Below are positions 27,703 through 64,000 of a DNA stretch of 64,000 nucleotides, in pieces. Every line of letters begins with the position of its first letter. Within the stretch, counting starts at the first letter, position 1. A program made the position numbers and the translations under genes. The notes below the pieces were generated by a model. That model saw only the letters and a list, made by a program, of their open reading frames with translations, had not been told where the DNA came from and made no database searches. Source of the stretch: a virus; the IMG/VR virus record IMGVR_UViG_3300027816_000087, positions 1 through 64,000 of that record, one strand, 5' to 3'.

Positions 27703-27733
27703 AAAAAGGGGAATTAACTTTCCCCCTTTTTTT
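27701..27733. terminator. bidirectional terminator between convergent blocks
   Basis: A-run-GGGGAA-TTAACT-TTCCCC-C-T-run. Confidence 0.75.
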
Positions 27734-48359: not shown

Positions 48360-51300
48360 TTATTTTAAATTAATTCCATTTTGATTAAAAAACAAATCTC
48401 TACTAATTATTGAAGGCGACCCTCCTCCAGTATTTTGAGTATTTTTTCTATTTTTTAAATACTCTTCATACTTTTGTTGTAGATCAAAATTAGCTTTTAA
48501 ATTATCATAGTAAATCTTTTGTATTTCAAAAACAATTTCATCAGGAGTTTTTTCTTGAAGACTAAATATTCTATCAGTAATTTGTCTTTCTTCAAGTCTT
48601 GTTCTCATTTCATTTGTTTTAGGATCTATTTCGTTTATACGAACATTATATTTTAAATTAAGCCTCACTGTACTAGGCATAGATTGAGGTGTAGATCCAT
48701 CTCTATCAGGAGTTAATGTAAAATTAAAACCTGTTGCATTCATCATATCATCAGATTTAAATTGCTTTCCTCTTAATAATGTTTGATAAATATAATATCC
48801 AGAATTCTTAGGCATATCACGTAAGTTCGGACCTAAACTAGGACTTCCTTCATTAATTGCAAATACAAATTTTTTGCCAGCCAAATCTGTTAATTTTTCA
48901 GTTCCTAAAACAATTTTTGAACCATCAGTAATAGCTCCAAAATCTACAGATATATTTGCTCTTCCTGCTATTAATCCACCACCTGCTGTATTGTATTTAA
49001 AACCTCCAAAATACTGTTCTGTTTGTTTTTCATTTTGTTGCAGTTTTCTTATTGCAGCCATTTCAGGAATAGTAGCTTCTCTTATTGTTCCATTACTTTC
49101 TTCTATATAAACTTCGGCATTTGCAGGTTCTAACACTTCTTGAAAAAGAGCAAATGCTTTATCACCATCTCTTGTACTTTTTTCTGGATCAAATAAATAA
49201 CTAAAGTTAGTCCCCACTTTACCTGTTTGACTTGAAAAAAATTGTAAACTGGGAACTACTGAATTATATACTTTGTTATAGTTTTTTCTAAAATCCCAAG
49301 GTTCTCCAAATTTATCAGTAAAGTTATCTATTGTCTGTTTAAGTTTTAAAAGATCTTTTTCCTGTGCATAAAGAGTTTCTCCATTCATTTCAATTTGAAT
49401 AGACTTTAAAGCTGTTGGATCTGTAGATACAGGTGTTTTATAACCACCAATAATTTTATAACTAAATTTATTATTAAAAATAGCTTGAGCTATTGCTTCA
49501 GGTTTAAGTTTAATATTAAACATATTTGGTACCTGAATTGGTAAATTTGCACCTATAATTGGAACACCAGCATAAGTAGTAAACGTAAAATCTTTAAATG
49601 CTTTAACTTCAGATATTTGTGCAAGTTTTTCAGAAGTTAGTAACTCATATGTACCATCATTTTTTTTAGTAAAATATTTATTTGCTTCTGCTGGATTTGT
49701 TTTTGCATATTTATCTAATATTTGTTTTCTATTTTCTTCATTAGCCAAATAAACTTCTAGGTTTGTTTTAGCAACGTTATAATTAATTAATGCTTTTTGT
49801 TCTTGAGCTGTTAACATAAAATCTAATGGTTGAGGTTTTCCATCTGCACCAATATGATTTTTAGCCTCATCCATTCTATCTTTTAAATAACCCTGCGTAT
49901 ATGCAATTAAAGCATTACGCATTGTTCCTGGTCCTGTAAGTTTTGTTATACCAGCTTCTTTAACATATTTATTTTCAATAAGTAACTTTTCTAATTTTTT
50001 TGAAGCAGCAGCTTGCTCAGGTGTAAATTTATAATCAGGAGCTCCTGGATTAAACAGACCACCTCTTAATTCATTATCAAAAGCTGATGAAATACTTGCT
50101 ACTTCAGCATCAGTTAATCCTAAACCATTCTTTGCAAAATATAATAAACCATCAGGACTAAATGCAAGATTATATGAACTATAAAAAAGTTCTTTTTGAC
50201 GTCTATCAAATATTTCAGCAGCAGTTCCTTGTTCAATAACATTAGTTGTACCTAGTCCAAGATATCTACCACCAGTTACTGTTTCAATTCCTTTTATAGG
50301 TTCAGTTAAAACATTTCCTTTTTTGTCTACTAACTGACCTAATGCATTTGTAGTTACACCTGAAGATCCACCAGATCCACCAGATCCATCAGTTTTTTTA
50401 TTAGGATTAGCTCTTTCCCACAAATCCTGGTCACGTTTCCACTCTGCTTCTTGTTTATTTAACTCATAATTTAAAACATCTAAATCAAATTTTCTTTGAT
50501 TAAGTTGGGCTTCTTGTGCTTTAAAATATGTTTCATTAGGCTTAATCTTTCTAGATTCTAATGAAGACACACCTGTAGACCAATTATCTACAAGACGTTG
50601 TTTAGCAAGTTTACCAAAGAAACCTTCAGGATTTAAAATAATATTGTTTTTAAGTTGGGCTTGATAATTTTTAGGAAAATTAATTTCGTATTCTTTATCT
50701 ATAGCATTTGATTTTCCTAATAACTCAGCTTTTTGTTTTTGATATTGTAACGCAGCTTGTTGATATTCAGGAGTGAGATTTTTTGGAAGAGCGTTTAATA
50801 ACCCATTAATTCTAGCAATTTCTACAGCTACATTATTTTTTCTTTTTTGATATCCTTTATCAAACTCACCTACTACATCATCAGCCATTTTTTCGTAAAT
50901 CTGAGCATCTGTTAGATTAGGAAATTGATTTTTGTATTGTTTGTATCTTTCTTCTTTTTCCACTCTACCTGTTACACTAAATTGCTCATAGAAATTATTA
51001 CCTATCATTGACTCAGCCCATGTAGCAAAATGTTTTTTAGATCTCTCTCCATTTTCTGTACTAATTAAATATGCACCATCAGCACTTGTCTCATCCCAAA
51101 CTATTTTTAAACCATCTTTACCAGCAACTTCATTTAAATATTTTTCAATATTAGTAAAAGGAATAGCTTTACGCTTTTGTACTTTTGAAAAATCATCATC
51201 TGTTCTATTAGCATTAATCAAAACATCTAAACCGTTCTGAAGATCTTTAGCTACAACACCACTATATTGTTCTCTTATCTTAGGGTCATCACTATTTTTC

Positions 51301-51674
51301 CAACTTTCAAGAGTTTGAAATTCATTTTGATAAGCTTTGGTAAGTTGTGCATCTTTTACAATAAAATTATCTTCCCAAAAAGGAGCAAATATTCCACGAG
51401 CAGCAGCTACATTTTGAGGTTGAGCAAAATCAAACCCAGCCATTTTTTGAAGATTTGCTCTAGCTTGTTTAATATACTCATCTCTTATTTGTATATTGTA
51501 CTTATTAGAAAGAGGAGCATTAAGTACTGATTCCCAAGCACTTCTAGCTTTAGAAATACCTTCCTCATACAATGCAGTTTTCCTTTGAAGCATTTTATCA
51601 TAAAATGCTAAATCAGGTTTGTATATATAAGGTTCAGGAAAAACGTCTGTAATATTGGGAATATAAGTTGCCAT
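48360..51674 (-). CDS. large virion/ejected protein
   Basis: 1104 aa, helical/coiled-coil; directly upstream of the RNAP gene; function from context only. Confidence 0.7.
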   Translation of the reverse strand: MATYIPNITDVFPEPYIYKPDLAFYDKMLQRKTALYEEGISKARSAWESVLNAPLSNKYNIQIRDEYIKQARANLQKMAGFDFAQPQNVAAARGIFAPFWEDNFIVKDAQLTKAYQNEFQTLESWKNSDDPKIREQYSGVVAKDLQNGLDVLINANRTDDDFSKVQKRKAIPFTNIEKYLNEVAGKDGLKIVWDETSADGAYLISTENGERSKKHFATWAESMIGNNFYEQFSVTGRVEKEERYKQYKNQFPNLTDAQIYEKMADDVVGEFDKGYQKRKNNVAVEIARINGLLNALPKNLTPEYQQAALQYQKQKAELLGKSNAIDKEYEINFPKNYQAQLKNNIILNPEGFFGKLAKQRLVDNWSTGVSSLESRKIKPNETYFKAQEAQLNQRKFDLDVLNYELNKQEAEWKRDQDLWERANPNKKTDGSGGSGGSSGVTTNALGQLVDKKGNVLTEPIKGIETVTGGRYLGLGTTNVIEQGTAAEIFDRRQKELFYSSYNLAFSPDGLLYFAKNGLGLTDAEVASISSAFDNELRGGLFNPGAPDYKFTPEQAAASKKLEKLLIENKYVKEAGITKLTGPGTMRNALIAYTQGYLKDRMDEAKNHIGADGKPQPLDFMLTAQEQKALINYNVAKTNLEVYLANEENRKQILDKYAKTNPAEANKYFTKKNDGTYELLTSEKLAQISEVKAFKDFTFTTYAGVPIIGANLPIQVPNMFNIKLKPEAIAQAIFNNKFSYKIIGGYKTPVSTDPTALKSIQIEMNGETLYAQEKDLLKLKQTIDNFTDKFGEPWDFRKNYNKVYNSVVPSLQFFSSQTGKVGTNFSYLFDPEKSTRDGDKAFALFQEVLEPANAEVYIEESNGTIREATIPEMAAIRKLQQNEKQTEQYFGGFKYNTAGGGLIAGRANISVDFGAITDGSKIVLGTEKLTDLAGKKFVFAINEGSPSLGPNLRDMPKNSGYYIYQTLLRGKQFKSDDMMNATGFNFTLTPDRDGSTPQSMPSTVRLNLKYNVRINEIDPKTNEMRTRLEERQITDRIFSLQEKTPDEIVFEIQKIYYDNLKANFDLQQKYEEYLKNRKNTQNTGGGSPSIISRDLFFNQNGINLK

Positions 51675-51733: not shown

Positions 51734-54289
51734 TTATGACATAAATGGATATGCGCTAGCTCCAAAGTTAAATGCTACATCATCATCTGAAGAAGATCCA
51801 CGTCTTGAAGATGGTCCATATTTTATTTTAAGATATTGATTAAGAGCATCTTTATCCATTGTGCCTTTGTATTTATCGTAGTCTTTTAAAAATTCAGAAG
51901 ACATGTTTGAACCAGAGGCTGTTGAACCCATAATAGCATCAGCTGCATTAACACCTGGTTTAAGTCTAAGTCTACCAAAAGGATCTGATGTATAATATTT
52001 AGATGTATCATAAAGTTGTCCTTTTTTAATACCTGCTTCAATACCTTCACCAAGCGTTTCTGCAAAATCAGTACCATATTTACGCATAGCATTTTGATAT
52101 TGTTGTGCAGCAACAGTTTCACCCGTATATCTTTTATTTCTTGTTTCACGTTTTTGAGCAGCAAGAGAATTATATACTTGAGCTTGCAATGGAGAATACT
52201 GATTAGCCACACCAACATTAAGATTTTGATATCTTCCTATAGTGTCAGCTGATGTTTTAGCAGCATTTGCTTGTATATAGTTAGCCATAGCTCCAGCAGC
52301 TTGAGGATTGATCATACCAGCCATTTGTTCTAATCCTCTAGCAGTTTCTTGTGCTGAAGCAAGTTCTCTTTCAGGATCATAAAATGTAGGTCTAGGTATA
52401 ACTCCTTGAGGCTCATCGTAAAAAGGACGAAGATAGAGAGGAGGATAAGCAGCAGCTGCCATTATTCCTAATGTGTTTTGAAAAGGAATTCCATAATAAC
52501 CACCACCAAAATTACCACCAGTTACATCACCTGCTTTAGGTCCTTCTTCACCTTCTTCATATGTTATATATTCTTGAATTTCTTTTTTTCTTTCACACTT
52601 TCCTGTTTTTTCATTATACTCTAATGTAGGATCAGGATTACCTTTTTCATCAAGACACGTACCTTTTGTTTCAGGAACTACTTCATCTGGTGTTGCTTGT
52701 TGTATAGGTTTATAATATGATTTATATTTTTGTAAACCACTAACAGTACCATGACCCTTTTTAGCAAGTTCTTCTATTGTAACACCTTTTGCTAATTGTG
52801 CTTTAATCCAATCTTCCCAAGCTTTACCAGGTTTACCACCAGAAACAGCTCCTCTAACTTCAACTGATTTACCAGGTGATCCTTTTTTAGTATATCCTGG
52901 TGTACCTGGTTTGTATGTACCAGCTACCTCAATAACTGTATTTCCTTTTCTTGCTTTATTAGTTCCTTGTATACGTTGATATTCTCCACTAGCAACTTTA
53001 GCTTCAAAATCTTTTTTTGACACTTTATTTGGAGATTGTAATCCACCTTGAGCTTTTGGTAGCATGTAGTTATCATAGTCATATATCTCACCACCAAACT
53101 GATCATTATAAGAACTATCTCCATATGTAGGAACAAATGATCCTCCATTAGCAAAATATGTTCCTTGATAATATGTACCACTATAAGAACCTCCTCTTCT
53201 CATTTGTTGAGTTTCTTCTTCTTCTGTAGGTTGTTCTTCTTGAGCTTGTTGCATAGCATAATCTGGTTCTCCACCTGGAGCACTATAGTATCCCGATGTA
53301 TCTTGTTGCTGCATCATTTGCTGATCTCCACCACCACCACCTTGTTGTTGAGAAATAACGTCTTCAACAGTTTGCATAATGTTTTGCAATGCTTCTTGTT
53401 GTTGTGCACGACCAAGCGATTGAAGTGCTTGATATATTTCTTCCTCAGACTTTTTTGTTAGTTGAGCATAAACAGAAATGTATTGAGCTATCTTCTTATC
53501 TTGACTACGAGATGATCCACCAGCTTGATATCTATACATATCACCTATACTACTATAGTCAGGAACAAATCCTCCATAGTTCATAGTGTTATATCCATAC
53601 ATAGCCATAGGTTGTTGACCCATCATAGGTGGTTGTTGCATCATTTGATCTTGAGGTTGCTGCTCCATTTGTTGTTGTTGAGATTGTTGCATATATTGTT
53701 GCATTTTAGCAAATTTTTCTTTAGCAATTTCTGGAATCCCCTGTGGAAAACCTTTTTTAGATTCTTGTAATATAGCTAGACTAGCAAGCTTATCATCATA
53801 TTTTTGTATCATTGCTGCTGCTGTTGCTTTTTGTAAAGGATCTGCTTTATCATTTTGAAGAATATCATAATATTTATTTGGTCTATATTGACCAGCTAAT
53901 TCTGCAAAAGAATAAGTTTTTTTATCTTTTTCTGATTTACCAAATTGAGATAGAACACTACCTTTCACTCCCATTTTTCCTTTTCTTTTAGAATAAACAA
54001 ATGAGTTATCAGGTAGATTCATAGGAACACCACCTTCTTTATTAGGATCGGGATTATGATTAGGACCCACTGCTTTTTGTAATGGACCAGTTGTATATTT
54101 AATTTCTTCACCTCCTTCAACTTCTACATTTGAATCCTCTCTAGGATCAGCACTACGAGTGTTTTTTCTTTCAACATCATTGTAATCAGGATCATAATCA
54201 TCAATCGTTGTTCTCACTATATCAAGTGAGTGTTTCTTTTGTCCACCATAAACCATCTTTTGAGGAGCTCTTGTAATTCTAACTTTCAT
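51734..54289 (-). CDS. virion cargo-like protein with EVEGGE domain, Q/M-rich tracts and xxxGG motifs
   Basis: 851 aa; NVEVEGGE...GGVPMNLP..SFVYS; motifs MVYGG, MNYGG, YQAGG, MRRGG, FANGG, QFGG, KAQGG. Confidence 0.72.
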   Translation of the reverse strand: MKVRITRAPQKMVYGGQKKHSLDIVRTTIDDYDPDYNDVERKNTRSADPREDSNVEVEGGEEIKYTTGPLQKAVGPNHNPDPNKEGGVPMNLPDNSFVYSKRKGKMGVKGSVLSQFGKSEKDKKTYSFAELAGQYRPNKYYDILQNDKADPLQKATAAAMIQKYDDKLASLAILQESKKGFPQGIPEIAKEKFAKMQQYMQQSQQQQMEQQPQDQMMQQPPMMGQQPMAMYGYNTMNYGGFVPDYSSIGDMYRYQAGGSSRSQDKKIAQYISVYAQLTKKSEEEIYQALQSLGRAQQQEALQNIMQTVEDVISQQQGGGGGDQQMMQQQDTSGYYSAPGGEPDYAMQQAQEEQPTEEEETQQMRRGGSYSGTYYQGTYFANGGSFVPTYGDSSYNDQFGGEIYDYDNYMLPKAQGGLQSPNKVSKKDFEAKVASGEYQRIQGTNKARKGNTVIEVAGTYKPGTPGYTKKGSPGKSVEVRGAVSGGKPGKAWEDWIKAQLAKGVTIEELAKKGHGTVSGLQKYKSYYKPIQQATPDEVVPETKGTCLDEKGNPDPTLEYNEKTGKCERKKEIQEYITYEEGEEGPKAGDVTGGNFGGGYYGIPFQNTLGIMAAAAYPPLYLRPFYDEPQGVIPRPTFYDPERELASAQETARGLEQMAGMINPQAAGAMANYIQANAAKTSADTIGRYQNLNVGVANQYSPLQAQVYNSLAAQKRETRNKRYTGETVAAQQYQNAMRKYGTDFAETLGEGIEAGIKKGQLYDTSKYYTSDPFGRLRLKPGVNAADAIMGSTASGSNMSSEFLKDYDKYKGTMDKDALNQYLKIKYGPSSRRGSSSDDDVAFNFGASAYPFMS

Positions 54290-54309
54290 ATTGTTTGTTT
54301 TAATATATT

Positions 54310-57300
54310 TTAAATATACTCTATGTCACCACCGTTTTCAAGAATTTGTCTTATTTGATCTTCTGTTAAATCATATTCTTCACCTTCATTATAACTCACT
54401 TCTCCTCCTAATTCAAAATATTTTTTAAGATCTTTCATTTTTTTATATAAGATATTATCTTCATATTTTACAAATAAAGAAGCAAGTTTATTAAATTGAT
54501 CTTGAGTTAAATCTCTAATCTTTAAATTAGCACCAACTCCTAATTCTTTTAAAATAAATTTAGAAGAATCAGTAATTTTATTAGGATCACCAGTAACCCA
54601 TTTATTCCTAGCCTGTTCTATAGTAAAATCACTATAATCTGGTCCCGACAAAAGTTTTTTGTGTGCATCCCATCCTTCATCTAAAGATTTAAATTTAGCT
54701 ACATGTCCTTTGTTATCATACGCTCCTTTTTCAGCTCCCCATTGACTTGTAAACTTACCAAAGTGAATGTTACCAGGATTGTTATGTGTTAAAGCTATAC
54801 TTTCTCCAGTTTTTTTATCATTCTTTTTTCCTTCATAGGGAAAGAAACTTATATGAACATGAGTGGTATGTGGATTATTGCCATTAGCTTTAGTGGGTAT
54901 ATATTTATGCCAACCTTCTTGTGGATTCCATACTCTTCTATTAAATATAACATATTTTACTCTTTTTTCTTTTGCTTGACTAATAATCTGTTCAGCAATC
55001 TTATTACCTTGATCAATGTTAACTATACCAATATCAAGAGCATTACCTGTATTATGATCACTTTCTCTTTGTCTATGTTTTTTATCACCCCATATACCAG
55101 ACATTCTTACACCTGCATATTGTTTAAGAATTTCATCCCATGTTTGTTCTATCACAGGATTTACACCAGCAAAATTATATTTTTTTGGTTTAGACGAAGA
55201 TGATGATGGTGGAGTTGTTGTTGTATTTGTAGTTTGTGGTTGAACAGAAGAAGCAGGTGTTTCAACAACAACTTCAGGAGTAACTATAGGAGAAAATTCA
55301 GTTTCTGGAACTACTAGTTGCTCACCAATAATACCTCCACCAAATTGAGCAAACTGTTGTGTACCTACTATTGCACCTGGCATATTAGATGTGTACATTC
55401 CTTTATTTACTGTATACTCATTAGGTCTAAATGCTCCAGTTTGTGTATAGTCTCCTCTAGATCCTGATACAGAAGGCATTACAGGTTGTGTAAATATTTT
55501 ATTTCTTAAATTCTTTTCATAACTTTTTTGAAAATCTCTATGTTGTTTTTCAGCAGCAAGTCTATTACCAAGAGCAAATCCTGTATTTAAACCTTTAGCT
55601 ACTTGAGTAAAAGCAGCTGCGCCTTTTTTATCCATCCATTCTCCAAACTTACCAAAAAGATATCTAGGAGCTTTTGTAGTGGTACTAGTTATTACATTAC
55701 CATACATATCTGTTTCCTTAGAAGGATCGTATGTAGGATCACCCTCCCATTTCATATCCATAATACTTTTTCCACTTGGAGGATCAATAACAGAGTTTGC
55801 TAAATTTTGATTATACCACTGAACCCATGTAGTTGTAGTTGAAGTTGTAGAAAATGGATCACCAAATGTCTCATCATCCATAGATGGTGGTTTAAACATA
55901 GCAAAAATATTAGGATCTTGAATACACTTTGTAGGATCATTTGGATCAGGCATATAACCAGGATCACAATTAGGTGGTGTTCCTCCTCCTTGCATTTTAG
56001 AAAGAACAGATCCTCCATGTCTTTTTTGTTTTAAATAAAAAGCAGCTCCACCTGTATGATTAAAATTATCATATCTATTTTGATCTTTATTTGTTATAAC
56101 GCCATCTTTTGTAAACAAACCTCTAGCAAATGTACCATTATCAAGTGGAATTAATTTAATTACTGATAGACCTGTTGCTTTTTTAAACTGTTCAACATAG
56201 TCATCAATATTTTTTAAAGAACCTGCAACTAGTACTTTTTTCTTTAAATCAGGTGTAGCTAAAATATACCTACCACCTCCAACAGCTCCAAATGATTCAT
56301 GACCTTTATCAATTTGTTTTTTAGGAATTAAAATATTTAAATTAACTGTTGGATTACCGTTTTCATCAAAAGCCATTGCTGTTCTTGCTACCTCATAATT
56401 AGATGTAGCATCACTATACATGTATTTTCCATTCTTTTCTTTTGCAATTCCAGTAATTTCCGCAGATCTAAAATCAGCCATTTCTAAATTCTTTCCTTTC
56501 AAATTTTTACCATAATCTAAATAGAATTTACCTTCAGCATCAATTCCCCCGTATATTTTATCATCTGCTATTTCATTATCGCTGTATCTTCTAATTGTAT
56601 TTGTACCATTATTATCAGTATACCCCTCACCCATTCCATATTCTTTTGCAAATGGTGTTATAACAAAACCTTCCGTTTTAATATCACCTAATCTACTACC
56701 TCTATTTCTTGCTCCTAATCTTAAACTAGAACTGCTTAGATCAAGCCATAATGGTTTTGTAATATATCTTTTATTCTTTTTATCATACGCTTCATTTTTA
56801 TCATACATTTCTATTGCACTACCTTCTGCATATGGTGTACTTTCAAGTACTAATGGTGATTGACTAACAACTGGTTTTTCTACTTTTGGAATTGAAATTG
56901 TTGACTTTGATTTATTAAGATCATCACCTTCTTTAAGTGCATTTTTTCTTGCAAAATAATTTTGACCGAGTTGAAATATATCATTAACACCGCTGCTTAT
57001 TCTTTCTATGTTTTTAGTAGGATCTAAAAATTCACCCAAAAAAAGTCCAGCAGCTTTAGTACCAAGATTTAAATAATCAAAAAAACCTAAGTTGTTTTTT
57101 TGATTTTGTTTATTAGGTAAACCTTCTTCAGGTAATACATCAAACTCAGTATATTCTTCTTTTCTTTGTGAAATAGGTTGTTGACCAGGTCTAAATGGAA
57201 TTTGAAGCAAACTTCTAGAATAATCTAAATATTTATTAAACTGATCCATTGCTCCTTTTTTAGCTTTAATTTCTTGAATTTGTTTTTTAGTTACAGGTGA

Positions 57301-59820
57301 TGTAACTACCACTTCAGGAAGAACAAAAGCTTCTTCACCTTCTTGTATGGTTTTATAATAACCACCAGGATCTGCAGTGTAATCTTCAGTAGTAGGATCA
57401 GATGAGTATTCTTCAGTAGAGACACTTGGTTTTTTATTCATTGCTGCATATTGAGAAGCATTATTAAAACCAAACTGAGGCATTGTCCCCATTCCTTTAT
57501 TAATGTCCATAGTAGCAATATCTAAAAGAGCATTTAGTTTATCAGCATTATAATTACTTCTAGCTTCTTCTTTTCCAGGAAGAGATGAATGTCTATCTAA
57601 TCCTGCTTTATTTTTTGCATGCAATTGCTCAATTGTTTCAACACTAACTGGAGTAAATGATTGTTGATGAGCTAAAAGAATATCTTGATTTTGTCTAAGT
57701 TTTTCAAGAAGCTCTAAGTTTTTTGCTGCCGAATAATCATACCCTTCAACACCATATTCTTTAGCAAGTTGTCCTCTAAATGGTTTAGATCCTTGATACC
57801 CTTTTGTTGCTAAATAGTCTACAATACTTGAACCTGTATATTCTGCACCATCTTGTGCTTTTACTAAACCACCATCTTGTTTTTTATTTCTTTGACTTCC
57901 TAAATATGCTCCTGAAGCTACTGATCCTGTACCAAGTCCTAATTGAAGTGCTGTTTCTCCAACTTTACCCCAATCAATAACTCTAGATGGTGTTTCACCA
58001 AAAGTAAAAAATCTTCCTGTTTCACCAAAAGGATCTATTTCACCTCTATTCATTCTAGAAATTTCATCAAAGTTTACTTCAAATTTTTGAGGTCCTCCAG
58101 GTTTAGTAAAATATTGTTTTGGGTTACGAATCATTTGTCCAAGATCCCTTGTATTTAATAATCCAGATTGTAAAGGTTGACCTTGAATCCCACTTTTACC
58201 TACAAAATTAAAACTACCCGATGTCAGATTAGGTTTAGGACTTTCAGAAATTAAAGTTCCAAAATTTCTACTATATTGACCTTGATAAGGTTTAATAAGC
58301 TCTAAAGGATCTGGAGTATGTCCATATAGTCTATTTAACCAATATCTTGTATTTTTATCCCATATCTTACCTGTTGGATCTATAACTAATCCTTGGTCAT
58401 TATTCGTAGGAATTGATTTACCAATTCCTTTAAAATTTTTTCTAAACCAATGTTCTACAGGACCAATTTTTAAATCCTTTAATAAACTTGGTATTTTATG
58501 TTGCACATCTTCAAACGATCTTCCTGGTATAATCTGTTCTGGTATATCAACAAGTCTAGTTTCATACATTTTAGTTTTAGGATTAAATGATTGTATTGTA
58601 GCTTGTCTTGTTGATGTAGAAGTTGGTGCTACAAGTCTACTAGCAGTTCTACCTGCCATTGGTATTGCTCTAGCTCCTAAAGAAAGTGCACCTTCTAACA
58701 AAGGTGCTGCTGTTAAACCAACATTTAATATTCTACCTAATCTTTCTTTATACTTATTTGCTTCATCTAAATCTCTTTGTGTAGTTCCTTCAGGAATACC
58801 TAGTACTTCTGTTCTATATTTATTAACATCATCTACTTTTTGCTGCGCAACCTTTCTTTCATAATCTGTTCTATTATCTTGACCAACTGTTACATTTGAT
58901 TTTTTCTGTGTTTGTTGTTGACGTATTTGTTGAGCAACAGGCCTACTTGCTCCTGTTTTTTTCATTATTTGTTTAACAACTTGTTCCTCTTTAATTTGTG
59001 GTTGAATTGCAGCTTTTGTTCCAACACTCATTCCTCTGTTTACTATATCCCCTTGACTACCATATTGTTTATCTCTAACTTGAAGATAACCAGGAAGCGA
59101 AGCGTTACTACCACCTGGTTGAAATTGAGTTAATGCACCACCTGCTCTAAAATATGAAGGTGCAATTTGATTTTTAGGAGTATATCTTTCATTAACTAAA
59201 TTTTCTATATCATTTTTATTTAGTTTGTAGTCTTGAAAATATCTCATTATAGTTTCACGACTTGGAGTGGGATTATTAAACGTAGATCTCACCCAAGGAA
59301 TATAAGGTTGTGAAGAATATGCACGAGGATCTTTCCCTTCTATTGGATTACCTTGTTCATCAAAATAGTTATTGTATTGAGATTGATTTAATCTATTATT
59401 TCTTTCTAGTTGATTAGCAGCAAAAAATTCATCATATGTTAAACCAGGATAATTTTTACTTGTTTGCTCCCATTCTTTTTTTAACATCTCATTCTCATTC
59501 TCAAGTCCTACTTTTGATGTTATATTTTGCCAAGGAGTTGTAGGTTTTGCTTCTTTTTGTTTGTTAATAATATTCATCATCCTATTATCAACAAAATTAT
59601 CTGGATTGTTACAACCTCCTTTGCCACATGTTGCAGCTGGTCTTGTACTTTCACTTGTAACATTAAACCCACCAACTGCTTTTACTAAACCACCATACCT
59701 TTTTTGTACTAGTTTTTTAGCTTCAGGAAACATGCCAAAGAATGCTTGTTCTGTTGGAAACAATTTGTAGAAATCTTTTTCATTTTCTACACCAGCCATT
59801 TTTAAAAATTCTTTCTTCAT
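54310..59820 (-). CDS. modular virion protein with DUF3597-like, M15/LAS-like peptidase and NNPGN lysozyme-like modules
   Basis: Likely start MKKEFLKMAG at 59820; SIVDYL..., DHNTGNALD...HTTHVH and NNPGNI motifs; paired GG motifs. Confidence 0.72.
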   Translation of the reverse strand: MKKEFLKMAGVENEKDFYKLFPTEQAFFGMFPEAKKLVQKRYGGLVKAVGGFNVTSESTRPAATCGKGGCNNPDNFVDNRMMNIINKQKEAKPTTPWQNITSKVGLENENEMLKKEWEQTSKNYPGLTYDEFFAANQLERNNRLNQSQYNNYFDEQGNPIEGKDPRAYSSQPYIPWVRSTFNNPTPSRETIMRYFQDYKLNKNDIENLVNERYTPKNQIAPSYFRAGGALTQFQPGGSNASLPGYLQVRDKQYGSQGDIVNRGMSVGTKAAIQPQIKEEQVVKQIMKKTGASRPVAQQIRQQQTQKKSNVTVGQDNRTDYERKVAQQKVDDVNKYRTEVLGIPEGTTQRDLDEANKYKERLGRILNVGLTAAPLLEGALSLGARAIPMAGRTASRLVAPTSTSTRQATIQSFNPKTKMYETRLVDIPEQIIPGRSFEDVQHKIPSLLKDLKIGPVEHWFRKNFKGIGKSIPTNNDQGLVIDPTGKIWDKNTRYWLNRLYGHTPDPLELIKPYQGQYSRNFGTLISESPKPNLTSGSFNFVGKSGIQGQPLQSGLLNTRDLGQMIRNPKQYFTKPGGPQKFEVNFDEISRMNRGEIDPFGETGRFFTFGETPSRVIDWGKVGETALQLGLGTGSVASGAYLGSQRNKKQDGGLVKAQDGAEYTGSSIVDYLATKGYQGSKPFRGQLAKEYGVEGYDYSAAKNLELLEKLRQNQDILLAHQQSFTPVSVETIEQLHAKNKAGLDRHSSLPGKEEARSNYNADKLNALLDIATMDINKGMGTMPQFGFNNASQYAAMNKKPSVSTEEYSSDPTTEDYTADPGGYYKTIQEGEEAFVLPEVVVTSPVTKKQIQEIKAKKGAMDQFNKYLDYSRSLLQIPFRPGQQPISQRKEEYTEFDVLPEEGLPNKQNQKNNLGFFDYLNLGTKAAGLFLGEFLDPTKNIERISSGVNDIFQLGQNYFARKNALKEGDDLNKSKSTISIPKVEKPVVSQSPLVLESTPYAEGSAIEMYDKNEAYDKKNKRYITKPLWLDLSSSSLRLGARNRGSRLGDIKTEGFVITPFAKEYGMGEGYTDNNGTNTIRRYSDNEIADDKIYGGIDAEGKFYLDYGKNLKGKNLEMADFRSAEITGIAKEKNGKYMYSDATSNYEVARTAMAFDENGNPTVNLNILIPKKQIDKGHESFGAVGGGRYILATPDLKKKVLVAGSLKNIDDYVEQFKKATGLSVIKLIPLDNGTFARGLFTKDGVITNKDQNRYDNFNHTGGAAFYLKQKRHGGSVLSKMQGGGTPPNCDPGYMPDPNDPTKCIQDPNIFAMFKPPSMDDETFGDPFSTTSTTTTWVQWYNQNLANSVIDPPSGKSIMDMKWEGDPTYDPSKETDMYGNVITSTTTKAPRYLFGKFGEWMDKKGAAAFTQVAKGLNTGFALGNRLAAEKQHRDFQKSYEKNLRNKIFTQPVMPSVSGSRGDYTQTGAFRPNEYTVNKGMYTSNMPGAIVGTQQFAQFGGGIIGEQLVVPETEFSPIVTPEVVVETPASSVQPQTTNTTTTPPSSSSSKPKKYNFAGVNPVIEQTWDEILKQYAGVRMSGIWGDKKHRQRESDHNTGNALDIGIVNIDQGNKIAEQIISQAKEKRVKYVIFNRRVWNPQEGWHKYIPTKANGNNPHTTHVHISFFPYEGKKNDKKTGESIALTHNNPGNIHFGKFTSQWGAEKGAYDNKGHVAKFKSLDEGWDAHKKLLSGPDYSDFTIEQARNKWVTGDPNKITDSSKFILKELGVGANLKIRDLTQDQFNKLASLFVKYEDNILYKKMKDLKKYFELGGEVSYNEGEEYDLTEDQIRQILENGGDIEYI

Positions 59821-59825
59821 ATTAG

Positions 59826-62800
59826 TTAGTTGTAGTTTTCTAGCCAATTAGTTTGTCCAGTATTTTTAACATTAAACCCTTTATTTGCAATAGGTAAAGA
59901 AGAACCCTCCACTCCTACTAATAAATTATTTAAATTGTTTAATTTCTCAAAATCATTTCCATGAATATTAAATAAATCAAGAAAATGTTCATATCTTAAT
60001 CTCTTCTCTGAATCTTTATTTTGAATAGCTTCCTCATAAGATTTTTTAGCTTTTTCGTAAATATTTTTAAAATCTTCGGATGTAGTGTTTGCTGCAGGAT
60101 CAATTCCGTATTCTGTTCTAAGTTCCATCAAGGCTCTGTAAAGTTCTGAATTTTTCATATTTTTTACATTTCCTTTTTTATTCACTCTAAAATTAGGAAA
60201 TCCTGTTCCAGTCATCCAATCATAAGCATAACCAGCATCTCTATCAAAATTAGCTTGAGCCCATTTACCAGCAGCTTCTTTTGATAAATCTGGTTTACCA
60301 ATTCTTTCATAAAGATGTTGTGCATAAACTTCAGGTCCAGCAAATCCAGAATATATTTGATCACTATATTGATCTAGAATTGGTTCAACAGTTTTATGAA
60401 GATCTCTATGTTTGCCCTCATGTTTTATAGGTTCTTCTGTTCTTGAAAGCTGATGAGCTTTTATATAACGATCTCTTAATTCTGGATTTTTATTTATATA
60501 GCCAAATCCTGGTTTTTTTAATTGTTCTTCTATTGAAAGATATGGGTTAGCTATTTCTATTGTTTCATCATAAGGCATGTATTGTCCTAAAAGACCTTGT
60601 GGAATTAAATAATGAACTCCTTTATACTCAATACCTTTAGAAACATCAGATGGAAGTTTACTAAAATTTTCTAATACTTGTTTAGCTTCATTGCTAATTC
60701 TTGGATCAGAATGGTTTACACGTGCTGTATACCAATCTAAAAGTTCTTTTCTTGCTTTATTTAAAATATCTACATCAGATTGAAGAGGAGGATATTTTGT
60801 TGTTTCATCTGTAGTTAAAAATCCACCTGGTGCAAATTGTTGTAATTGTCCACCTGCTTTAAATTCTTTTCTATCTTCTTCATTTAATATACCTGTATTT
60901 GAAATACTCGTTCCTGTGTATAATTTATTTTCAGATAGATATTTCATAAAATCATCTGCCTCATTTCCTCTTAATAATCTTCTATGGGGAAGATTATCTA
61001 AACCACGCCACTCTACCATTCTATCAGCTTTAGACAATATCCTTTGATTTGCTCTTGGTGTTTTATATAATTGTTCAAAATTTGGTCCATAATTAAGATC
61101 CTCAGATTCTCTAGATGCTCTAATAATATCATCAGTAAGAACTACATCATCTACCGATTTTCCAAGAGGTTTGCTAGGTCCTACTTTTACTGTAACACTA
61201 CCTTTTAGTTCATTTTCCCAATCTCTAAGTTGTCTTCTAGTATCTCTTCTAGATAAACCTTTATAATCTCTTAAATAATCTTTTGCTATACCTTTCATTC
61301 TATCCATTGTCCATTCACTAGGATTATAATTACGATGATATGCAAATGCTAGTTCAGGATTATCAACAAACATTTGATTAAAATCTTGCAATCTTTTAAA
61401 AGGATTTTCATTTCCAAAACCAGTAAGGGTACCTGTATTAGGAGCTGTTTTATTTATTATTACATCTCTAAAATATTCATTATTTATTCTTGGATCAATT
61501 TCTTTTCTAACAAATCTTTTAGCTTCTCTCCATGCTTTATCTTTATTATCAGGATATTGTAACATGTAATATTTGTACATATCAGCTAAAACATTATTTC
61601 TATTTTGTTCAACTGTTGTTCCACTTTGATTTAAATTTGGATAATTCTTTCCAAATTCAACATCTATAATCCCTCTATCAATATTCCAATGTTTATCACC
61701 TTTAAATGGAACAGACATAGCATCTTTTTTGTTAGATGCATTTCTATACCAATAAAGAAAATCTACATCTTCACCTGACGTTGGCATTTCTGTAAACTTT
61801 CTTATTTCATCCTCTGTTTTATATGGAGTTACTGTTCTACGTATAGCATAATCTGTTTTACCACCAACAGATGGATTATGTACATATCTAGTTTCTTTTG
61901 GTAAAGTTGTAGTGTCTGTTGTTACAAATCCACCAGGTTGAAATTGTTTAAACTGACCACCACGTTTGTAATTACCTTGTGTTGTTAAATTACCATAATA
62001 TGTTCCTGTTTCATAACGTCTTTGATTTTCTTTTTGTAGAAAATCCATCATATCATCTGCCTCTTTTCTAGTCTTAAAAAAAACTTCTCTTGGTTGATTT
62101 TGTCCTTCAGAATTTAATTCACTAAATCTTAAAACATAATCTCCTGATTGATTAGGTTGTATACTAGGTTGTCTATTTATTGATGGAGTTCCAACACTCA
62201 AAGGTTCTATACCAATTGTATTACGAACCATTTTTAATTGTGGTGGTAAAGAAGAAACGCTAGGAGGAATAACTTTGTTTTCTGGTTTATCGCCATATAA
62301 TTTTTCCCATTCAAGATTTTCTTTTTTACTTCTTAAATGAGGTGGTTTTATATATAAAGGATCATAATCAAAAACTTCAACATTTCCACCTGGATAACCT
62401 GATAAATTTCCTGATACAGGTTCATATCGAATTACTCTTTGTGGCTTTACTCTTTTATCAACAAGTGCAAATGGTGAAACTAAATTTTGAGCTGGCGTAA
62501 CAATATCTCTATAATAAAGTTGATTATTACTATTTGATTTTTGTATTTGTTCAAGAGATTTACGCTCTAAATCTCTAATTTGTGAAGGTGATAAATTATA
62601 TATTTTTTTATAAAGAGCATCGTAAAATGCACCTGGGGGATGTTTATAAAAACTTAAATTTCCTTCTTTTAGTTTATTATACTCACGATTTGAAATAGAT
62701 GGTTGATTAAAAGTTTTAGTACTAGTGCGTTTTAATCTTCCTTGTCTTACTTCATTTTCATAAAAATTGTTAAGTGCAATTTGTGAATTGTATAAAGCTT

Positions 62801-63998
62801 CATGTTCTTCTCGTGTAAGTATAGGAAATGTAGTTTCATCTGTAGTTAATCCACCTTCATCATATCTATCTAACCAATTACCTTCTTCTAGATTTGGTAT
62901 AGATATATCTCCACCATTTTGAGCTTTTTGTAAATAACTTTCTCCACCATATTGTTTTTTATCAACACCTTCATCCATAGTTTTTACATCACTTCCAAAT
63001 TTTAAACCACCAATAGTAGCATTATATAATTTTTGTAAAAGTGTGTAATACTCATCTCCTTTCATTCCTTTCAATGCTTTAGAATAAGGGATAAGTCCTA
63101 AAAGACCTTGTGTATAATCTTCACCAGCCTTACTCCAATTTTTATCAAGAGCATATCTAGTTCCAGTGTAAAAATCTCCTGTTGCACCTGCTAATTGAAT
63201 AAGATATTGAATTTCAGGAGCTGCCATTGTAGAAAGCGCAGCTGCAGAAAGTGCTCCTTTATTATACTTTACAGCATTAGATGGTTCATATCTTTCTACA
63301 GGTTTAGAAGGTCTGTCTAATATCTTTTCATAAAATCTTTTTCCTTGATCATCTAAATGTGGAGCTATAACTATATTTGGAAGAATCCCCACCTCACCTA
63401 TTCCTTCTCTATTTTCATATCGTATTGGATCAACATCAACGATAGGCTCAGTGGAACCAAGAGGTGTTGTTGTTTGAACGGTAGTTGCAAACCCACCATT
63501 CTTAAGTCCTAAAATATTAGAAGAATTAGATGGTTTATAATTAGCAAATGCCTTTATCATTTTATATGGTCCTGCAGTTTGACTAGGATATTTATCATTT
63601 GGATCATAACCTATTAACTCATTATCCATTTTTCTGTCTACAAAACCAACTTTTGGTTTAGGTTGTCTATCATAATGTTGCACGTAACCATCAGCTATAT
63701 TTTTTCTTTCCCAACCAGAAGAATAAATAGGCATTCCTGGAAGATTTTTTATTTTTTTATGATAATATTTATCAAACCCATCATCTTTTCTTAAATAAGG
63801 AGGTTTATTAAAATCTTCATAAAATTTGTTATAATCTTGGTATTCTTTATCTGTATATTCTTTACTATAAGGAACTACTATTGGTCCACCATTTTCAAAT
63901 CTATGTGTAAATCTTAATTCTGGAAAAAATTGCGGTTTACCAAATAATTCTACACCACCTGGATAACCAACAGATACACTATTAACATTTCCTGTTAG
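59826..63998 (-). CDS. modular virion protein (5'-truncated) with zincin HExxH module and repeated GG-TTDETT junctions
   Basis: Frame stays open from 63734 to the window edge (LTGNVNSV...RFENGG...LPGMP); HEGKH at 60408-60422. Confidence 0.72.
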   Translation of the reverse strand, partial: LTGNVNSVSVGYPGGVELFGKPQFFPELRFTHRFENGGPIVVPYSKEYTDKEYQDYNKFYEDFNKPPYLRKDDGFDKYYHKKIKNLPGMPIYSSGWERKNIADGYVQHYDRQPKPKVGFVDRKMDNELIGYDPNDKYPSQTAGPYKMIKAFANYKPSNSSNILGLKNGGFATTVQTTTPLGSTEPIVDVDPIRYENREGIGEVGILPNIVIAPHLDDQGKRFYEKILDRPSKPVERYEPSNAVKYNKGALSAAALSTMAAPEIQYLIQLAGATGDFYTGTRYALDKNWSKAGEDYTQGLLGLIPYSKALKGMKGDEYYTLLQKLYNATIGGLKFGSDVKTMDEGVDKKQYGGESYLQKAQNGGDISIPNLEEGNWLDRYDEGGLTTDETTFPILTREEHEALYNSQIALNNFYENEVRQGRLKRTSTKTFNQPSISNREYNKLKEGNLSFYKHPPGAFYDALYKKIYNLSPSQIRDLERKSLEQIQKSNSNNQLYYRDIVTPAQNLVSPFALVDKRVKPQRVIRYEPVSGNLSGYPGGNVEVFDYDPLYIKPPHLRSKKENLEWEKLYGDKPENKVIPPSVSSLPPQLKMVRNTIGIEPLSVGTPSINRQPSIQPNQSGDYVLRFSELNSEGQNQPREVFFKTRKEADDMMDFLQKENQRRYETGTYYGNLTTQGNYKRGGQFKQFQPGGFVTTDTTTLPKETRYVHNPSVGGKTDYAIRRTVTPYKTEDEIRKFTEMPTSGEDVDFLYWYRNASNKKDAMSVPFKGDKHWNIDRGIIDVEFGKNYPNLNQSGTTVEQNRNNVLADMYKYYMLQYPDNKDKAWREAKRFVRKEIDPRINNEYFRDVIINKTAPNTGTLTGFGNENPFKRLQDFNQMFVDNPELAFAYHRNYNPSEWTMDRMKGIAKDYLRDYKGLSRRDTRRQLRDWENELKGSVTVKVGPSKPLGKSVDDVVLTDDIIRASRESEDLNYGPNFEQLYKTPRANQRILSKADRMVEWRGLDNLPHRRLLRGNEADDFMKYLSENKLYTGTSISNTGILNEEDRKEFKAGGQLQQFAPGGFLTTDETTKYPPLQSDVDILNKARKELLDWYTARVNHSDPRISNEAKQVLENFSKLPSDVSKGIEYKGVHYLIPQGLLGQYMPYDETIEIANPYLSIEEQLKKPGFGYINKNPELRDRYIKAHQLSRTEEPIKHEGKHRDLHKTVEPILDQYSDQIYSGFAGPEVYAQHLYERIGKPDLSKEAAGKWAQANFDRDAGYAYDWMTGTGFPNFRVNKKGNVKNMKNSELYRALMELRTEYGIDPAANTTSEDFKNIYEKAKKSYEEAIQNKDSEKRLRYEHFLDLFNIHGNDFEKLNNLNNLLVGVEGSSLPIANKGFNVKNTGQTNWLENYN

Positions 63999-64000
63999 TC

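Follow-up and report, generated by a model that had tools for sequence, protein, structure and literature searches.

Recurrent Gly-Gly seam peptides in three modular, probably virion-internal proteins of a crAss-like phage

The window, a stretch of 64,000 nucleotides of viral DNA, ends in three large consecutive open reading frames on the minus strand.

51734–54289, minus strand: p851, C1-like cargo protein, based on synteny, with 1489 representative homologues
54310–59847, minus strand: p1845, second variable cargo protein, probably starting at 59820
59826–64000 in the window, minus strand: p1546, first variable cargo protein, residues 157–1546 covered

The p1546 ORF overruns the window (59826–64466 in the 89,072-bp record, 1546 aa). 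Since MKKEFLK or MAGVENE opens its homologues, p1845 probably starts at Met10 (ATG at 59820). The three genes were located between a muzzle-like gene and C2-like and RNAP-like genes, and the muzzle-like gene was preceded by crAss tail-ring genes; the cargo genes of crAss001 occupy this position. CrAss_Ring_2 (E 6e-23) and CrAss_Ring_1 (E 1e-13) were found directly upstream of p1515, which matched "virion structural protein" families and structural proteins of Cellulophaga and Flavobacterium phages. The gene order muzzle-like, variable cargo ORFs, C1-like, C2-like, RNAP-like was seen in 80 IMG/VR loci, and one, two and three ORFs lay between the anchors in 3, 33 and 9 of the 45 loci with both anchors. 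The three ORFs probably encode cargo (ejection) proteins that this crAss-like Bacteroidota phage would carry inside the virion and inject; p1546 and p1845 form part of a hypervariable cassette that is bounded by the muzzle gene and C1.

A sequence-only reading had listed motifs ending in GG in these proteins, and all 26 strings were present in the translations where it had placed them. Plain GG was only weakly above composition-preserving shuffles, which reached the observed count in 31 (p851), 538 (p1845) and 119 (p1546) of 2000 cases, whereas the context of the GG was not due to chance. The paired pattern GG.{0,5}[KQ][AFYM]x(1-2)G, which like the two patterns below was written post hoc, after inspection of the data, occurred 8 times in the three proteins and was absent from the remaining 58 proteins that the record encodes (23,936 aa), and none of 1000 shuffles reached this count. 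Similarly, [KQ][AFYM]Q.G was found 7 times in the three proteins versus twice elsewhere in the record, and GG[FL]x(0-1)TT 4 times versus none. Relatives independently showed the half-motif, in 88 internal copies versus 23 in one shuffle. Both the GG listing and the pattern count agreed with the sequence-only reading that the 5259- and 1612-aa neighbors lack the paired motif.

Across the 80 related loci, the motif was restricted to ORFs of the variable cargo and C1-like types, with 0.59 and 0.50 paired motifs per 1000 aa versus 0.02–0.04 in muzzle, C2 and RNAP-like ORFs; the corresponding GG densities were 10.8 and 13.3 versus 2.6–5.3. The Gly-Gly seam pattern is real and widespread, and its peptides are of three related kinds. 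The N-terminal leader has the form MK[IV]RI..P..[KAQxG or AYGG], with the family-wide version MKIRITKKGLPKAQxG. The internal seam, [KR]x-aromatic-GG followed after 0–5 residues by [LV][PK]KAQxG, looks like an internalized leader, while the C-terminal cap reads ..LTEDEIxxILxxGGxVEFL-end. A KVRI-type start was present in 59 of 67 C1-like and 37 of 114 variable cargo ORFs but absent from all muzzle, C2 and RNAP-like ORFs. At the other end, 72 of 125 variable cargo ORFs had a GG no more than 12 aa from the C-terminus (18.5 expected). The cap pattern closed 76 of 355 distinct ORFs from these loci, 73 of which had a second GG 14–62 aa ahead of the end.

The features of p851 were as follows.

54242–54289, minus strand: N-terminal leader MKVRITRAPQKMVYGG, residues 1–16, pLDDT about 50
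53660–54169, minus strand: CARG1-like compact domain, residues 41–210, pLDDT 88–96, Atlas lead PF25725 with a score of 0.92
53507–53647, minus strand: linker with MNYGG and YQAGG, residues 215–261, pLDDT <50
53039–53197, minus strand: linker with RRGG, FANGG, QFGG and LPKAQGG, residues 365–417, pLDDT <50

The start M-x(0-4)-[KR][IVLF][KRT][IV] was shared by 123 of 180 family proteins. In the AlphaFold models, which covered p851 and one p1546 junction (residues 1202–1222), the GG sites lay mostly in low-confidence linkers: 12 of the 14 GG sites of p851, including all seven motifs listed for it by the sequence-only reading, fell in segments with pLDDT <50 (235 of 851 residues), although low pLDDT is no proof of disorder. 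The linker motif was conserved amid otherwise unalignable sequence in proteins less than 50% identical, with G232 identical in all of 50 sequences and G239 conserved in at least 90% of them.

Nine features were delimited in p1845.

59668–59703, minus strand: paired junction KRYGGLVKAVGG, residues 49–60, six breakpoints at 52–60
59110–59154, minus strand: paired junction YFRAGGALTQFQPGG, residues 232–246; the alignment of homologue P0010 begins at 233
57847–57885, minus strand: paired junction KKQDGGLVKAQDG, residues 655–667, eight breakpoints at 650–667
57610–57855, minus strand: peptidoglycan-binding-like module, residues 665–746, phrog_2307 at E 4.3e-10 (match residues 665–734)
55981–56025, minus strand: paired junction KRHGGSVLSKMQGGG, residues 1275–1289, from orthologue comparison
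55333–55356, minus strand: QFAQFGGG seam, residues 1498–1505, closing a widespread ..SRGDY..NKGMY.. module
54847–55101, minus strand: DHxxGxAxD...HxxHVHxS module, residues 1583–1667, phrog_32486 at E 7e-8
54403–54420, minus strand: YFELGG seam, residues 1810–1815, preceding the C-terminal cap
54313–54384, minus strand: C-terminal cap GEEYDLTEDQIRQILENGGDIEYI, residues 1822–1845, from the cap pattern across related loci

A conserved N-terminal leader module is closed by KRYGGLVKAVGG. At the KKQDGGLVKAQDG seam, homologues P0005–P0007 and P0009 have the leader fused straight to the next module, and the peptidoglycan-binding-like stretch begins right behind it, a case of the earlier observation that domains start just after a motif. 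The tblastn matches of this module were cell-wall-binding domains of Bacillus phage proteins. The orthologues at KRHGGSVLSKMQGGG retain K+xGGx[VI]Lx[KR][AM][QD]xG and diverge totally just downstream, and stand-alone relatives of the C-terminal part begin with MKIRITGKGLPKAQxG where p1845 has this internal seam. The DHxxGxAxD...HxxHVHxS module, whose motif we take to be probably a metal site of the cell-wall hydrolase type, matched PDB 9flh ("LysM domain-containing protein", E 5e-4). In this region P0004, with a recorded Pfam M23 peptidase (PF01551), differs in sequence from p1845.

The following features were assigned to p1546.

63885–63902, minus strand: RFENGG seam, residues 189–194, five homologue breakpoints at 191–199
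63465–63506, minus strand: LKNGG seam followed by FATTVQTTT, residues 321–334, breakpoints at 325–341
62832–62960, minus strand: composite junction KKQYGG..QKAQNGG..NWLDRYDEGGLTTDET, residues 503–545, 17 breakpoints from 499 to 555
61908–61967, minus strand: paired junction KRGGQFKQFQPGGFVTTDTT, residues 834–853, breakpoints at 832–861
60801–60863, minus strand: paired junction FKAGGQLQQFAPGGFLTTDET, residues 1202–1222, pLDDT 26–32 (AlphaFold, residues 1190–1546)
59829–60800, minus strand: C-terminal module with HEGKH (60408–60422), candidate zincin-like metallopeptidase

The p1546 homologues P0017–P0034 are mosaic, and most share the N-terminal ~100 aa. The NWLxxY at the 503–545 junction resembles a type of C-terminal tail of relatives, while the FKAGGQLQQFAPGGFLTTDET seam in P0008 links the p1546 C-terminal module to p1845-type modules. 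The H, E and H of HEGKH were invariant in all six aligned sequences, at identities down to 29%. The AlphaFold model of residues 1190–1546 (pTM 0.58) placed HEGKH in a helix following a small sheet, and its sole domain-wide structural match was a weak one to the zinc peptidase 1g12_A (Z 5.5, rmsd 4.2, 128 residues aligned). The module is a possible zincin-like metallopeptidase.

Comparison with relatives bore out the proposal that the three ORFs are modular with motifs at the module seams. The homologues were mosaics whose breakpoints clustered at motifs: 18 of 39 in p1845 and 35 of 70 in p1546 lay within 15 aa of a GG, against a uniform expectation of 20%, and none of 5000 simulations reached the observed fraction, although these counts are non-independent because the homologues are related and short motif HSPs contribute both ends. 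At orthologous junctions the motif was kept while the flanks switched completely, and the same modules were found fused or as separate genes. Payload domains differed between relatives, including M23 peptidase, ART-PolyVal, Amidase_2 with LysM, SET and lysozyme domains.

Several known systems share parts of this arrangement. The short terminal capsid-targeting sequences of T4 internal proteins and the cargo-loading peptides of encapsulins address unrelated cargo inside a shell, as the peptide here may do, but here it also recurs inside chains; the prohead protease cleaves off the T4 peptides, whereas S78 and ClpP families were unmatched here in five records. In T-even tail-fiber adhesins, conserved Gly-rich and His-box motifs mark recombination points and likewise border swapped segments. 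However, they act inside one receptor-binding protein, whereas whole enzyme modules are exchanged here among putative internal virion proteins.

Among the closest known systems is C1 of crAss001 (gp45; PDB 7qog chain M; Bayfield et al. 2023, PMC10172136), whose gene likewise follows the muzzle gene and precedes the C2 and RNAP genes. Gp45 and p851 both have a compact domain following a leader and long unmodeled linkers, and p851 gave structural matches in BFVD by Foldseek to "Cargo protein 1 compact domain-containing protein" (E 2.5e-5 and 7.7e-4). No sequence match was detected by the Pfam PF25725 model or by profile (hhalign of p851 versus gp45, E 0.3), and 7qog was not returned for p851 by the PDB profile search or three PDB fold searches. 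We tentatively take p851 to correspond to cargo protein 1 of crAss001, with weak kinship. The aromatic-GG motifs of gp45 (at 209, 263, 332, 427, 434 and 562) flank both segments described as resolved in the virion (PMC10172136). Its residues 425–552 were modeled there as one portal-bound domain, which runs through AFGG (427–428) and QGG (434–435), both uncut, and in the authors' model one extended chain bridges this capsid-bound part and the tail-bound part (214–245). Gp45 has neither the LPKAQxG half nor the KVRI leader nor the C-terminal cap, and the cargo load here is three genes totaling 4242 aa compared with its 842 aa.

The polyvalent proteins of phages and conjugative elements (Iyer, Burroughs, Anand, de Souza, Aravind 2017, PMC5512222) are likewise giant, multidomain and extensively mosaic, and are thought to be delivered with DNA. 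Cell-wall enzymes occur in both groups, and ART-PolyVal occurs in relatives here (P0010 and an ORF of locus L021). The main text of that article describes no junction peptide, and p851, p1845 and p1546 matched no Pfam polyvalent-protein domain.

Four explanations of the seam peptides were weighed. The earlier idea of a cleavable polyprotein, in which a protease cuts after the seam GG and after the N-terminal leader and releases the modules in the capsid or host, seems to us rather unlikely. Di-Gly sites are processed by adenain, ASFV pS273R, ULP and C39 peptidases, and in those sites, as here, GG follows a few conserved residues, but the motif here is paired and continues past GG. The search for a C48/C5-like or prohead protease that had been proposed yielded no match to S78, ClpP, C48, C39 or C5 families in the record and four complete relatives. 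Candidate enzymes would be the cargo-borne HExxH modules, a host enzyme or the papain-fold protease that the phage encodes at 83601–84479, which bears Q, C, H and N motifs; this protease was full length in only one of five relatives searched (four complete) and absent from both reference phages, crAss001 and Fpv1. HExxH was strongly enriched in variable cargo ORFs (22 occurrences in 21 of 128, versus 0.6 in shuffles) and was carried by 15 of the 30 p1845 and p1546 homologues, and therefore the chains could process themselves, as was proposed for the HExxH modules (MPTases) of polyvalent proteins (PMC5512222). The fused or separate state of modules would be compatible with a cleaved polyprotein, the gp45 parts occupy two compartments, and the HExxH of p1546 is invariant, but its zincin fold was weakly matched. 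Against cutting also stand the continuous gp45 joint and the paired sites merely 2–5 residues apart, an odd cleavage signal. The cap is found only once in a chain and is missing from the fused form P0011, which suggests that the chain is handled as one unit. Cleavage thus found no support in the protease families, the patchy papain-like protease or the gp45 joint, and the repeated packaging tag, offered originally as the alternative, fits the data at least as well. The L-P-K-A-Q and the basic and aromatic residues before GG fit an enzyme site and a docking site equally.

Gly-rich hinges for packing or extruding bulky chains, recognized by nothing specific, are quite unlikely in our estimation. 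The low pLDDT of the motifs, the Thr/Pro-rich stretches after several seams and the about 179 residues required to cross about 420 Å in the crAss001 model would suit them, but a hinge needs neither L-P-K-A-Q, a basic-aromatic pair before GG nor a fixed helix-GG-strand cap, and composition-preserving shuffles did not produce the pattern. We also consider it quite unlikely that the motifs are only recombination scars, i.e., leaders and tails left over from gene fusion or exchange-favoring microhomology lacking a protein function. The clustered breakpoints accord with scars, as do the 27 of 46 internal CARG1-type modules that keep the whole leader strand (Met retained in 23 of the 27, GG within 16 aa upstream in 24) and the about 14–17 nt shared by motif copies within the genome. 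However, these copies carry synonymous differences yet preserve the peptide, unalignable linkers nevertheless retain the motif, and leader and cap stand at the true termini of hundreds of proteins, which argues for selection on the peptide.

We favor, at roughly an even chance, modular cargo chains in which the Gly-Gly peptides stay uncut, an assumption drawn by analogy from one joint of the distant phage crAss001, whose motif lacks LPKAQ. Each chain would be a string of independently folding modules, namely a portal-binding-type compact domain, cell-wall-binding, cell-wall-hydrolase and HExxH modules, and in relatives ART, SET, amidase and lysozyme modules. The peptides would serve as flexible seams and short recognized handles that let any payload module load into the particle, where the loaded chain would be held extended across portal and tail before threading out in the N-to-C direction. 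They would also be the points of gene fusion, splitting and module swapping. Since the ORFs are modular, with motifs at the seams, a cargo position and payload domains that differ between relatives, the earlier description of a plug-in cassette for payload domains fits this locus.

The 64,000 bases analyzed are the first part of an 89,072-bp viral record with an estimated completeness of 69%, in which seven very large ORFs occupy one 41-kb run on the minus strand. Three of them, named by length in amino acids, carry the GG motifs: the variable cargo proteins p1546 and p1845, and the C1-like p851.

Very large ORFs of the run, in record coordinates
64463-69010, minus strand: p1515, muzzle-like ORF
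59826-64466, minus strand: p1546, variable cargo ORF, cut by the window end
54310-59847, minus strand: p1845, variable cargo ORF
51734-54289, minus strand: p851, C1-like ORF
48360-51674, minus strand: p1104, C2-like ORF
32561-48340, minus strand: p5259, ORF with homologues at the RNAP-like position
27732-32570, minus strand: p1612, ORF

Two small proteins directly upstream of p1515 matched the Pfam families CrAss_Ring_2 (E 6e-23) and CrAss_Ring_1 (E 1e-13). The p1515 protein itself matched a PHROG of virion structural proteins (E 3.5e-66) and was ~27% identical to structural proteins of the Cellulophaga phages phi4:1 and phi17:2 and the Flavobacterium Fpv and FPSV phages. According to PMC10172136, the order in crAss001 is muzzle gp44, cargo C1 gp45, cargo C2 gp46, and RNAP-associated gp47, gp49, and gp50. 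For p851, 1489 representative homologues were found at E <= 0.001, and a scan with an alignment of 50 p851 homologues returned 80 IMG/VR loci. Their order was muzzle-like (p1515 homologue), variable ORFs, C1-like (p851), C2-like (p1104), and RNAP-like (p5259). Among the 45 loci with both anchors, the muzzle and C1 genes were separated by one ORF in 3, two in 33, and three in 9, summing to 1173-3136 aa. Based on this gene order, we assign p1546 and p1845 to a hypervariable cassette and regard p851 as the likely counterpart of C1, with the muzzle on one side and the C2 and RNAP genes on the other, as in crAss001. The p1845 protein probably starts at Met10, matching the starts of its homologues.

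The C2-like cargo protein p1104 (48360-51674) is almost devoid of GG motifs; in most of the 80 loci, the gene after the C1-like one encodes a p1104 homologue that also begins MATY[IL]..VTD..P. The p5259 protein, called RNAP-like here by locus position, has no HExxH. Elsewhere in the record, a family A-type DNA polymerase (23330-25273; phrog_1252, E 1e-144) lies within a plus-strand replication block, and a further stretch of the record encodes a ferritin-like protein (L002:16862-17455, E 6e-22), an endonuclease VII (L002:18152-18589, E 1.5e-17), and a GT34-like glycosyltransferase (L002:5096-5722, E 6e-8), the last amid small Thr-rich, Cys-rich proteins.

The kinship of p851 to C1 is only moderately supported. 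The Atlas gave the Pfam family crAss_CARG1 (PF25725) as a lead for p851 (score 0.92; TM 0.74 by the target row). A Foldseek search of BFVD matched p851 to C1-domain proteins at E values of 2.5e-5, 7.7e-4, and 1.6e-3 (TM 0.09-0.11 on the whole floppy model), the first two being named 'Cargo protein 1 compact domain-containing'; a phi4:1 protein with the UniProt name 'Structural protein' and an Fpv3 protein were matched as well. The hhalign comparison with gp45, the crAss001 C1 protein, aligned the right region at E 0.3. PF25725 itself had no match at E <= 10 anywhere in the record, and none of 50 p851 family members had a Pfam match. Searches against the PDB gave chance-level rows only with the A1 profile and no row at E <= 0.001 with Foldseek of the p851 model; entry 7qog was not listed in the PDB searches with p851, and the VIA wide and second-look rows were taken up by the long helix at residues 628-711. 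The tblastn search of p851 against named phages returned nothing. The gp31 protein of phage Fpv1 (L003:22014-23900) has the compact-domain signature VEVEGQE..HEQGGVDMNVPEGTKIYS and a single seam-like RKYGGGTGPGG. Since it lacks dense paired motifs, the motif load varies by lineage.

All 26 GG strings listed in the sequence-only reading were found in the translations. Plain GG was barely above shuffles, the observed count being reached by 31 (p851), 538 (p1845), and 119 (p1546) of 2000 composition-preserving shuffles, whereas the paired pattern was specific to the three proteins. Three search patterns were used, all defined post hoc from data already inspected. The paired pattern (GG, 0-5 residues, [KQ][AFYM]x(1-2)G) occurred eight times in p1546, p1845, and p851 (4242 aa), a count attained by 0 of 1000 shuffles, and was absent from the remaining 58 proteins encoded by the record (23,936 aa), including p5259 and p1612, the neighbors in which it had not been noticed earlier. 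The pattern [KQ][AFYM]Q.G occurred seven times versus two elsewhere in the record, and GG[FL]x(0-1)TT four times versus none. In independent relatives, the half-motif had 88 internal copies versus 23 in one shuffle, with the sharper consensus [KR]-[YF]-GG, 0-3 residues, L-P-K-A-Q-x-G. The variable cargo and C1-like classes are the ones to which the motif is confined in the 80 loci.

Motif density per 1000 aa by protein class in the 80 loci
Variable cargo: paired motif 0.59, GG 10.8
C1-like: paired motif 0.50, GG 13.3
Muzzle-like: paired motif 0.02, GG 5.3
C2-like: paired motif 0.02, GG 2.6
RNAP-like: paired motif 0.04, GG 3.4

The muzzle-like starts of p1515 (L001:5463-10010; MAKQEQGGSNPLTSTNS) and Fpv1 gp30 (L003; MRDNNTVIQPGGLSTDTS) resemble the QxGG and subsequent Thr-rich segment found after p1546 seams, i.e., internal GG junctions.

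The homologues of p1845 and p1546 are mosaic, with identities of up to 93% over at most one third of the query. Counting HSP ends internal in both partners as breakpoints, which are not independent events, 18 of 39 in p1845 and 35 of 70 in p1546 lay 15 aa or less from a GG, compared with 20% under uniform placement; 0 of 5000 simulations gave the observed fraction. Only one breakpoint was found in p851, away from any GG. The comparison of module boundaries in homologues bore out their clustering at the GG motifs of p1845 and p1546. In four mosaic homologues (P0005, P0006, P0007, and P0009), the N-terminal leader of p1845 abuts the peptidoglycan-binding module at ..YGGLIKAQ[DN]G.., while in p1845 ~600 residues are inserted between the two and the module comes after KKQDGGLVKAQDG. 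Orthologues share GGAAFYLxQK+xGGx[VI]Lx[KR][AM][QD]xG and then run on in three unrelated sequences, and in the mosaic homologue P0008, KKIGGELEEFAPGGFLTTDETT connects p1845 modules with the p1546 C-terminal module.

The AlphaFold model of p851, built from a 50-sequence alignment, had a mean pLDDT of 73, with confident domains at residues 41-210, 262-316, 420-470, 486-580, and 600-826. Twelve of the 14 GG sites, including all seven p851 motifs named earlier, fell in segments with pLDDT < 50 (235 of 851 residues), and the p1546 seam FKAGGQLQQFAPGGFLTTDETT had a pLDDT of 26-32 in a model of residues 1190-1546. Low model confidence at these sites fits the expected placement in disordered linkers; the remaining two in p851 are (nearly) invariant glycines within the compact domain. 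Together, the mosaic homologues, the seams at the motifs, and the cargo gene position support the modular-cargo interpretation that the sequence-only reading had offered.

The same peptides recur at the chain ends. Among 180 family proteins, 123 start with M-x(0-4)-[KR][IVLF][KRT][IV], and 74 of these leader-type proteins have GG or [KQ][AFYM]Q.G within the first 30 residues, with MKIRITKKGLPKAQxG and MKYKVRITKAP..MAYGGQ as typical examples of the start. By class, leader-type starts were found in 59 of 67 C1-like and 37 of 114 variable cargo proteins of the loci, and in no muzzle, C2, or RNAP-like protein. Within the chains, the paired motif (KKxxGG-L[VP]KAQxG) resembles the latter half of the leader. 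At the position of the internal p1845 seam KRHGGSVLSKMQGGG, stand-alone relatives of the final third of this protein open with the leader instead. Of 146 representatives, 46 have the CARG1-type module, a compact domain like p851 residues 41-210, embedded in a longer protein; the KIRI strand is kept in 27 of these 46, of which 23 retain the Met and 24 have a GG <=16 aa upstream.

At the other end, 72 of 125 complete C-termini of variable cargo ORFs have a GG <=12 aa from the end versus 18.5 expected by their own GG density. A C-terminal cap peptide, ..EGDxYELTEDEIKSILSSGGDVEFL, ends 76 of 355 distinct ORFs of the 80 loci (L005-L084), and 73 of the 76 have a further GG 14-62 aa before the end. 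The layout of the cap is a strand, the helix TEDEIxxIL, GG, the strand xVEFL, and the stop; in p1845 it reads GEEYDLTEDQIRQILENGGDIEYI (residues 1822-1845; 54313-54384, minus strand). The mosaic homologue P0011, a fusion of p1845-type and p851-type parts, lacks the cap, and its seam passes directly into MKIRIV. Therefore, the cap appears to be a property of chain ends, not of modules. The p1546 protein ends in ..TNWLENYN (59829-59870, minus strand); a second tail type, GG..NWLxxY[KN]-end, is present in the related loci L005, L014, L016, and L064, and NWLDRY (62871-62889) is an internal copy of it in the composite junction of p1546 (residues 526-538). The GG observation is confirmed in a sharper form, as leader, seam, and cap peptides that occur family-wide in the crAss-like cargo cassette.

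Pfam, PHROGs, and NCBIfam searches of p1546, p1845, and p851 gave only two PHROG matches, both in p1845 and one of them to its peptidoglycan-binding-like stretch, and no Pfam match. A second p1845 module, DHxxGxAxD...HxxHVHxS, which we take to be a metal site, is similar to PDB entry 9flh (E 5e-4). The tblastn search of p1845 against named phages found small cell-wall domains only, and the related-locus search with p1845 alone found no relative. The payloads of the relatives comprise M23 peptidase, ART-PolyVal, chitin-binding domain, Amidase_2 with LysM, SET, phage lysozyme, and Amidase_6. Variable cargo ORFs contain 22 HExxH copies in 21 of 128 ORFs (shuffle mean 0.6). HExxH also occurred in 8 of 50 RNAP-like ORFs and in none of the muzzle, C1, or C2 classes. 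The p1546 copy, HEGKH, is fully conserved in its alignment (6 of 6 sequences) and is modeled in a helix after a small sheet. For this module, Foldseek against the PDB returned nothing at E <= 0.001, VIA wide placed a zinc peptidase highest among its domain-wide rows with a Z of 5.5, which is under the stated noise level of the tool, and the Atlas leads were limited to unnamed viral clusters and LPD23 at 0.80; we regard the module as a possible zincin-like metallopeptidase.

The seams may be cleaved, as the sequence-only reading proposed, or serve uncut as handles. Cleavage is in line with the enrichment of HExxH in variable cargo ORFs, the equivalence of fused and split module forms, and the residue-specific conservation of the motif. 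However, the protease families sought did not turn up in the five records searched (our own, 69% complete, and four complete relatives). C48 (PF02902) and C39 (PF03412), whose controls rang above the cut-off, had no match; nor did C5 (PF00770), although this negative says less because its control rang only below the cut-off. Peptidase_S78 and ClpP were likewise absent with positive controls, and the S77 search (0 of 5) was uninformative because its control rang nowhere. The record does encode P0035 (83601-84479), a papain-fold cysteine protease without signal peptide (QGQTSEC, GGHA, NSWG) with relatives in actinophages and jumbo phages. We rejected it as a general GG protease: full length, it was found in one of the five relatives searched (four of them complete), and it is absent from Fpv1 and crAss001. 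One complete 121-kb relative has it at 85% identity. A predicted lipoprotein (82186-83589; L002:12186-13589), which combines five thrombospondin type 3 repeats with a metzincin-like HEIGHTLGLYH domain, was set aside as a secreted protein because of its lipoprotein signal. The adenain-type consensus has M/L/I at P4; MVYGG, MNYGG, and MRRGG carry Met at P5 and do not fit. A DNA-level repeat was also rejected as the cause of the motif, its copies sharing just ~14-17 nt.

The virion structure of crAss001 also counts against cleavage. Aromatic-GG peptides of gp45 lie at 209, 263, 332, 427, 434, and 562, and PMC10172136 describes two resolved segments, one bound to the tail rings (214-245) and one to the portal (425-552); both start at or shortly after such a peptide. 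The portal segment was modeled continuously across two GGs, and the authors joined the tail and portal parts via one extended 179-residue chain. A word search of PMC10172136 found no mention of cleavage, proteolysis, or protease, and a broader literature search on cleavage of crAss cargo yielded nothing relevant. On balance, we consider cleavage of the GG seams unsupported and unlikely and give uncut seams serving as handles an even chance. More tentatively, leader, internal seams, and cap might jointly form a peptide address code read by the portal and tail rings, a possible but doubtful proposal. Under such a code, any module bearing the handles would be loaded, take its turn in a row along the axis of portal and tail, and be injected in the N-to-C direction; in a sub-variant, cargo-borne HExxH modules would cut the seams after injection and free the payloads.

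Among known systems, crassvirus C1 of the gp45 type shares the gene position of p851, but p851 has no PF25725 match. Like polyvalent proteins, which carry 2-15 unrelated domains per polypeptide, p1845, p1546, and p851 are multi-domain, judging by mosaic HSP maps, the separate confident domains of p851, and the peptidoglycan-binding-like and hydrolase-type modules of p1845. Of the polyvalent signature domains (MPTase, ART-PolyVal, LPD families, and others), ART-PolyVal occurs in the relatives; the three proteins themselves had no Pfam match, and their HExxH module is unassigned. Viral polyproteins cut at di-Gly have a C5, C48, or C39 protease encoded with the substrate, and none of these families matched in the five records (C5 control below cut-off). 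For T4 IP-type internal proteins, processed by a prohead protease of the S77, S78, or ClpP type, S78 and ClpP were likewise found in no record, and the S77 search was uninformative. Literature searches by title or abstract found no phage paper on the LPKAQ motif, and none was found on a glycine motif in Crassvirales cargo proteins; passages and word searches of PMC10172136 and PMC5512222 did not mention the motif.

Crassviruses rank among the most abundant known phages, and the loading and injection of their ~5 MDa of protein are described as unresolved in PMC10172136. The family-wide leader, seam, and cap peptides provide concrete handles on both processes, open to deletion, exchange, or reporter fusion. 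The hypervariable payload cassette exchanges cell-wall enzymes and host-modifying effectors (ART, SET) and bears on host range and counter-defence in Bacteroidota. If the address code is true, the muzzle-to-C1 cassette would be a natural plug-and-play system for the delivery of arbitrary enzymes into Bacteroidota cells.
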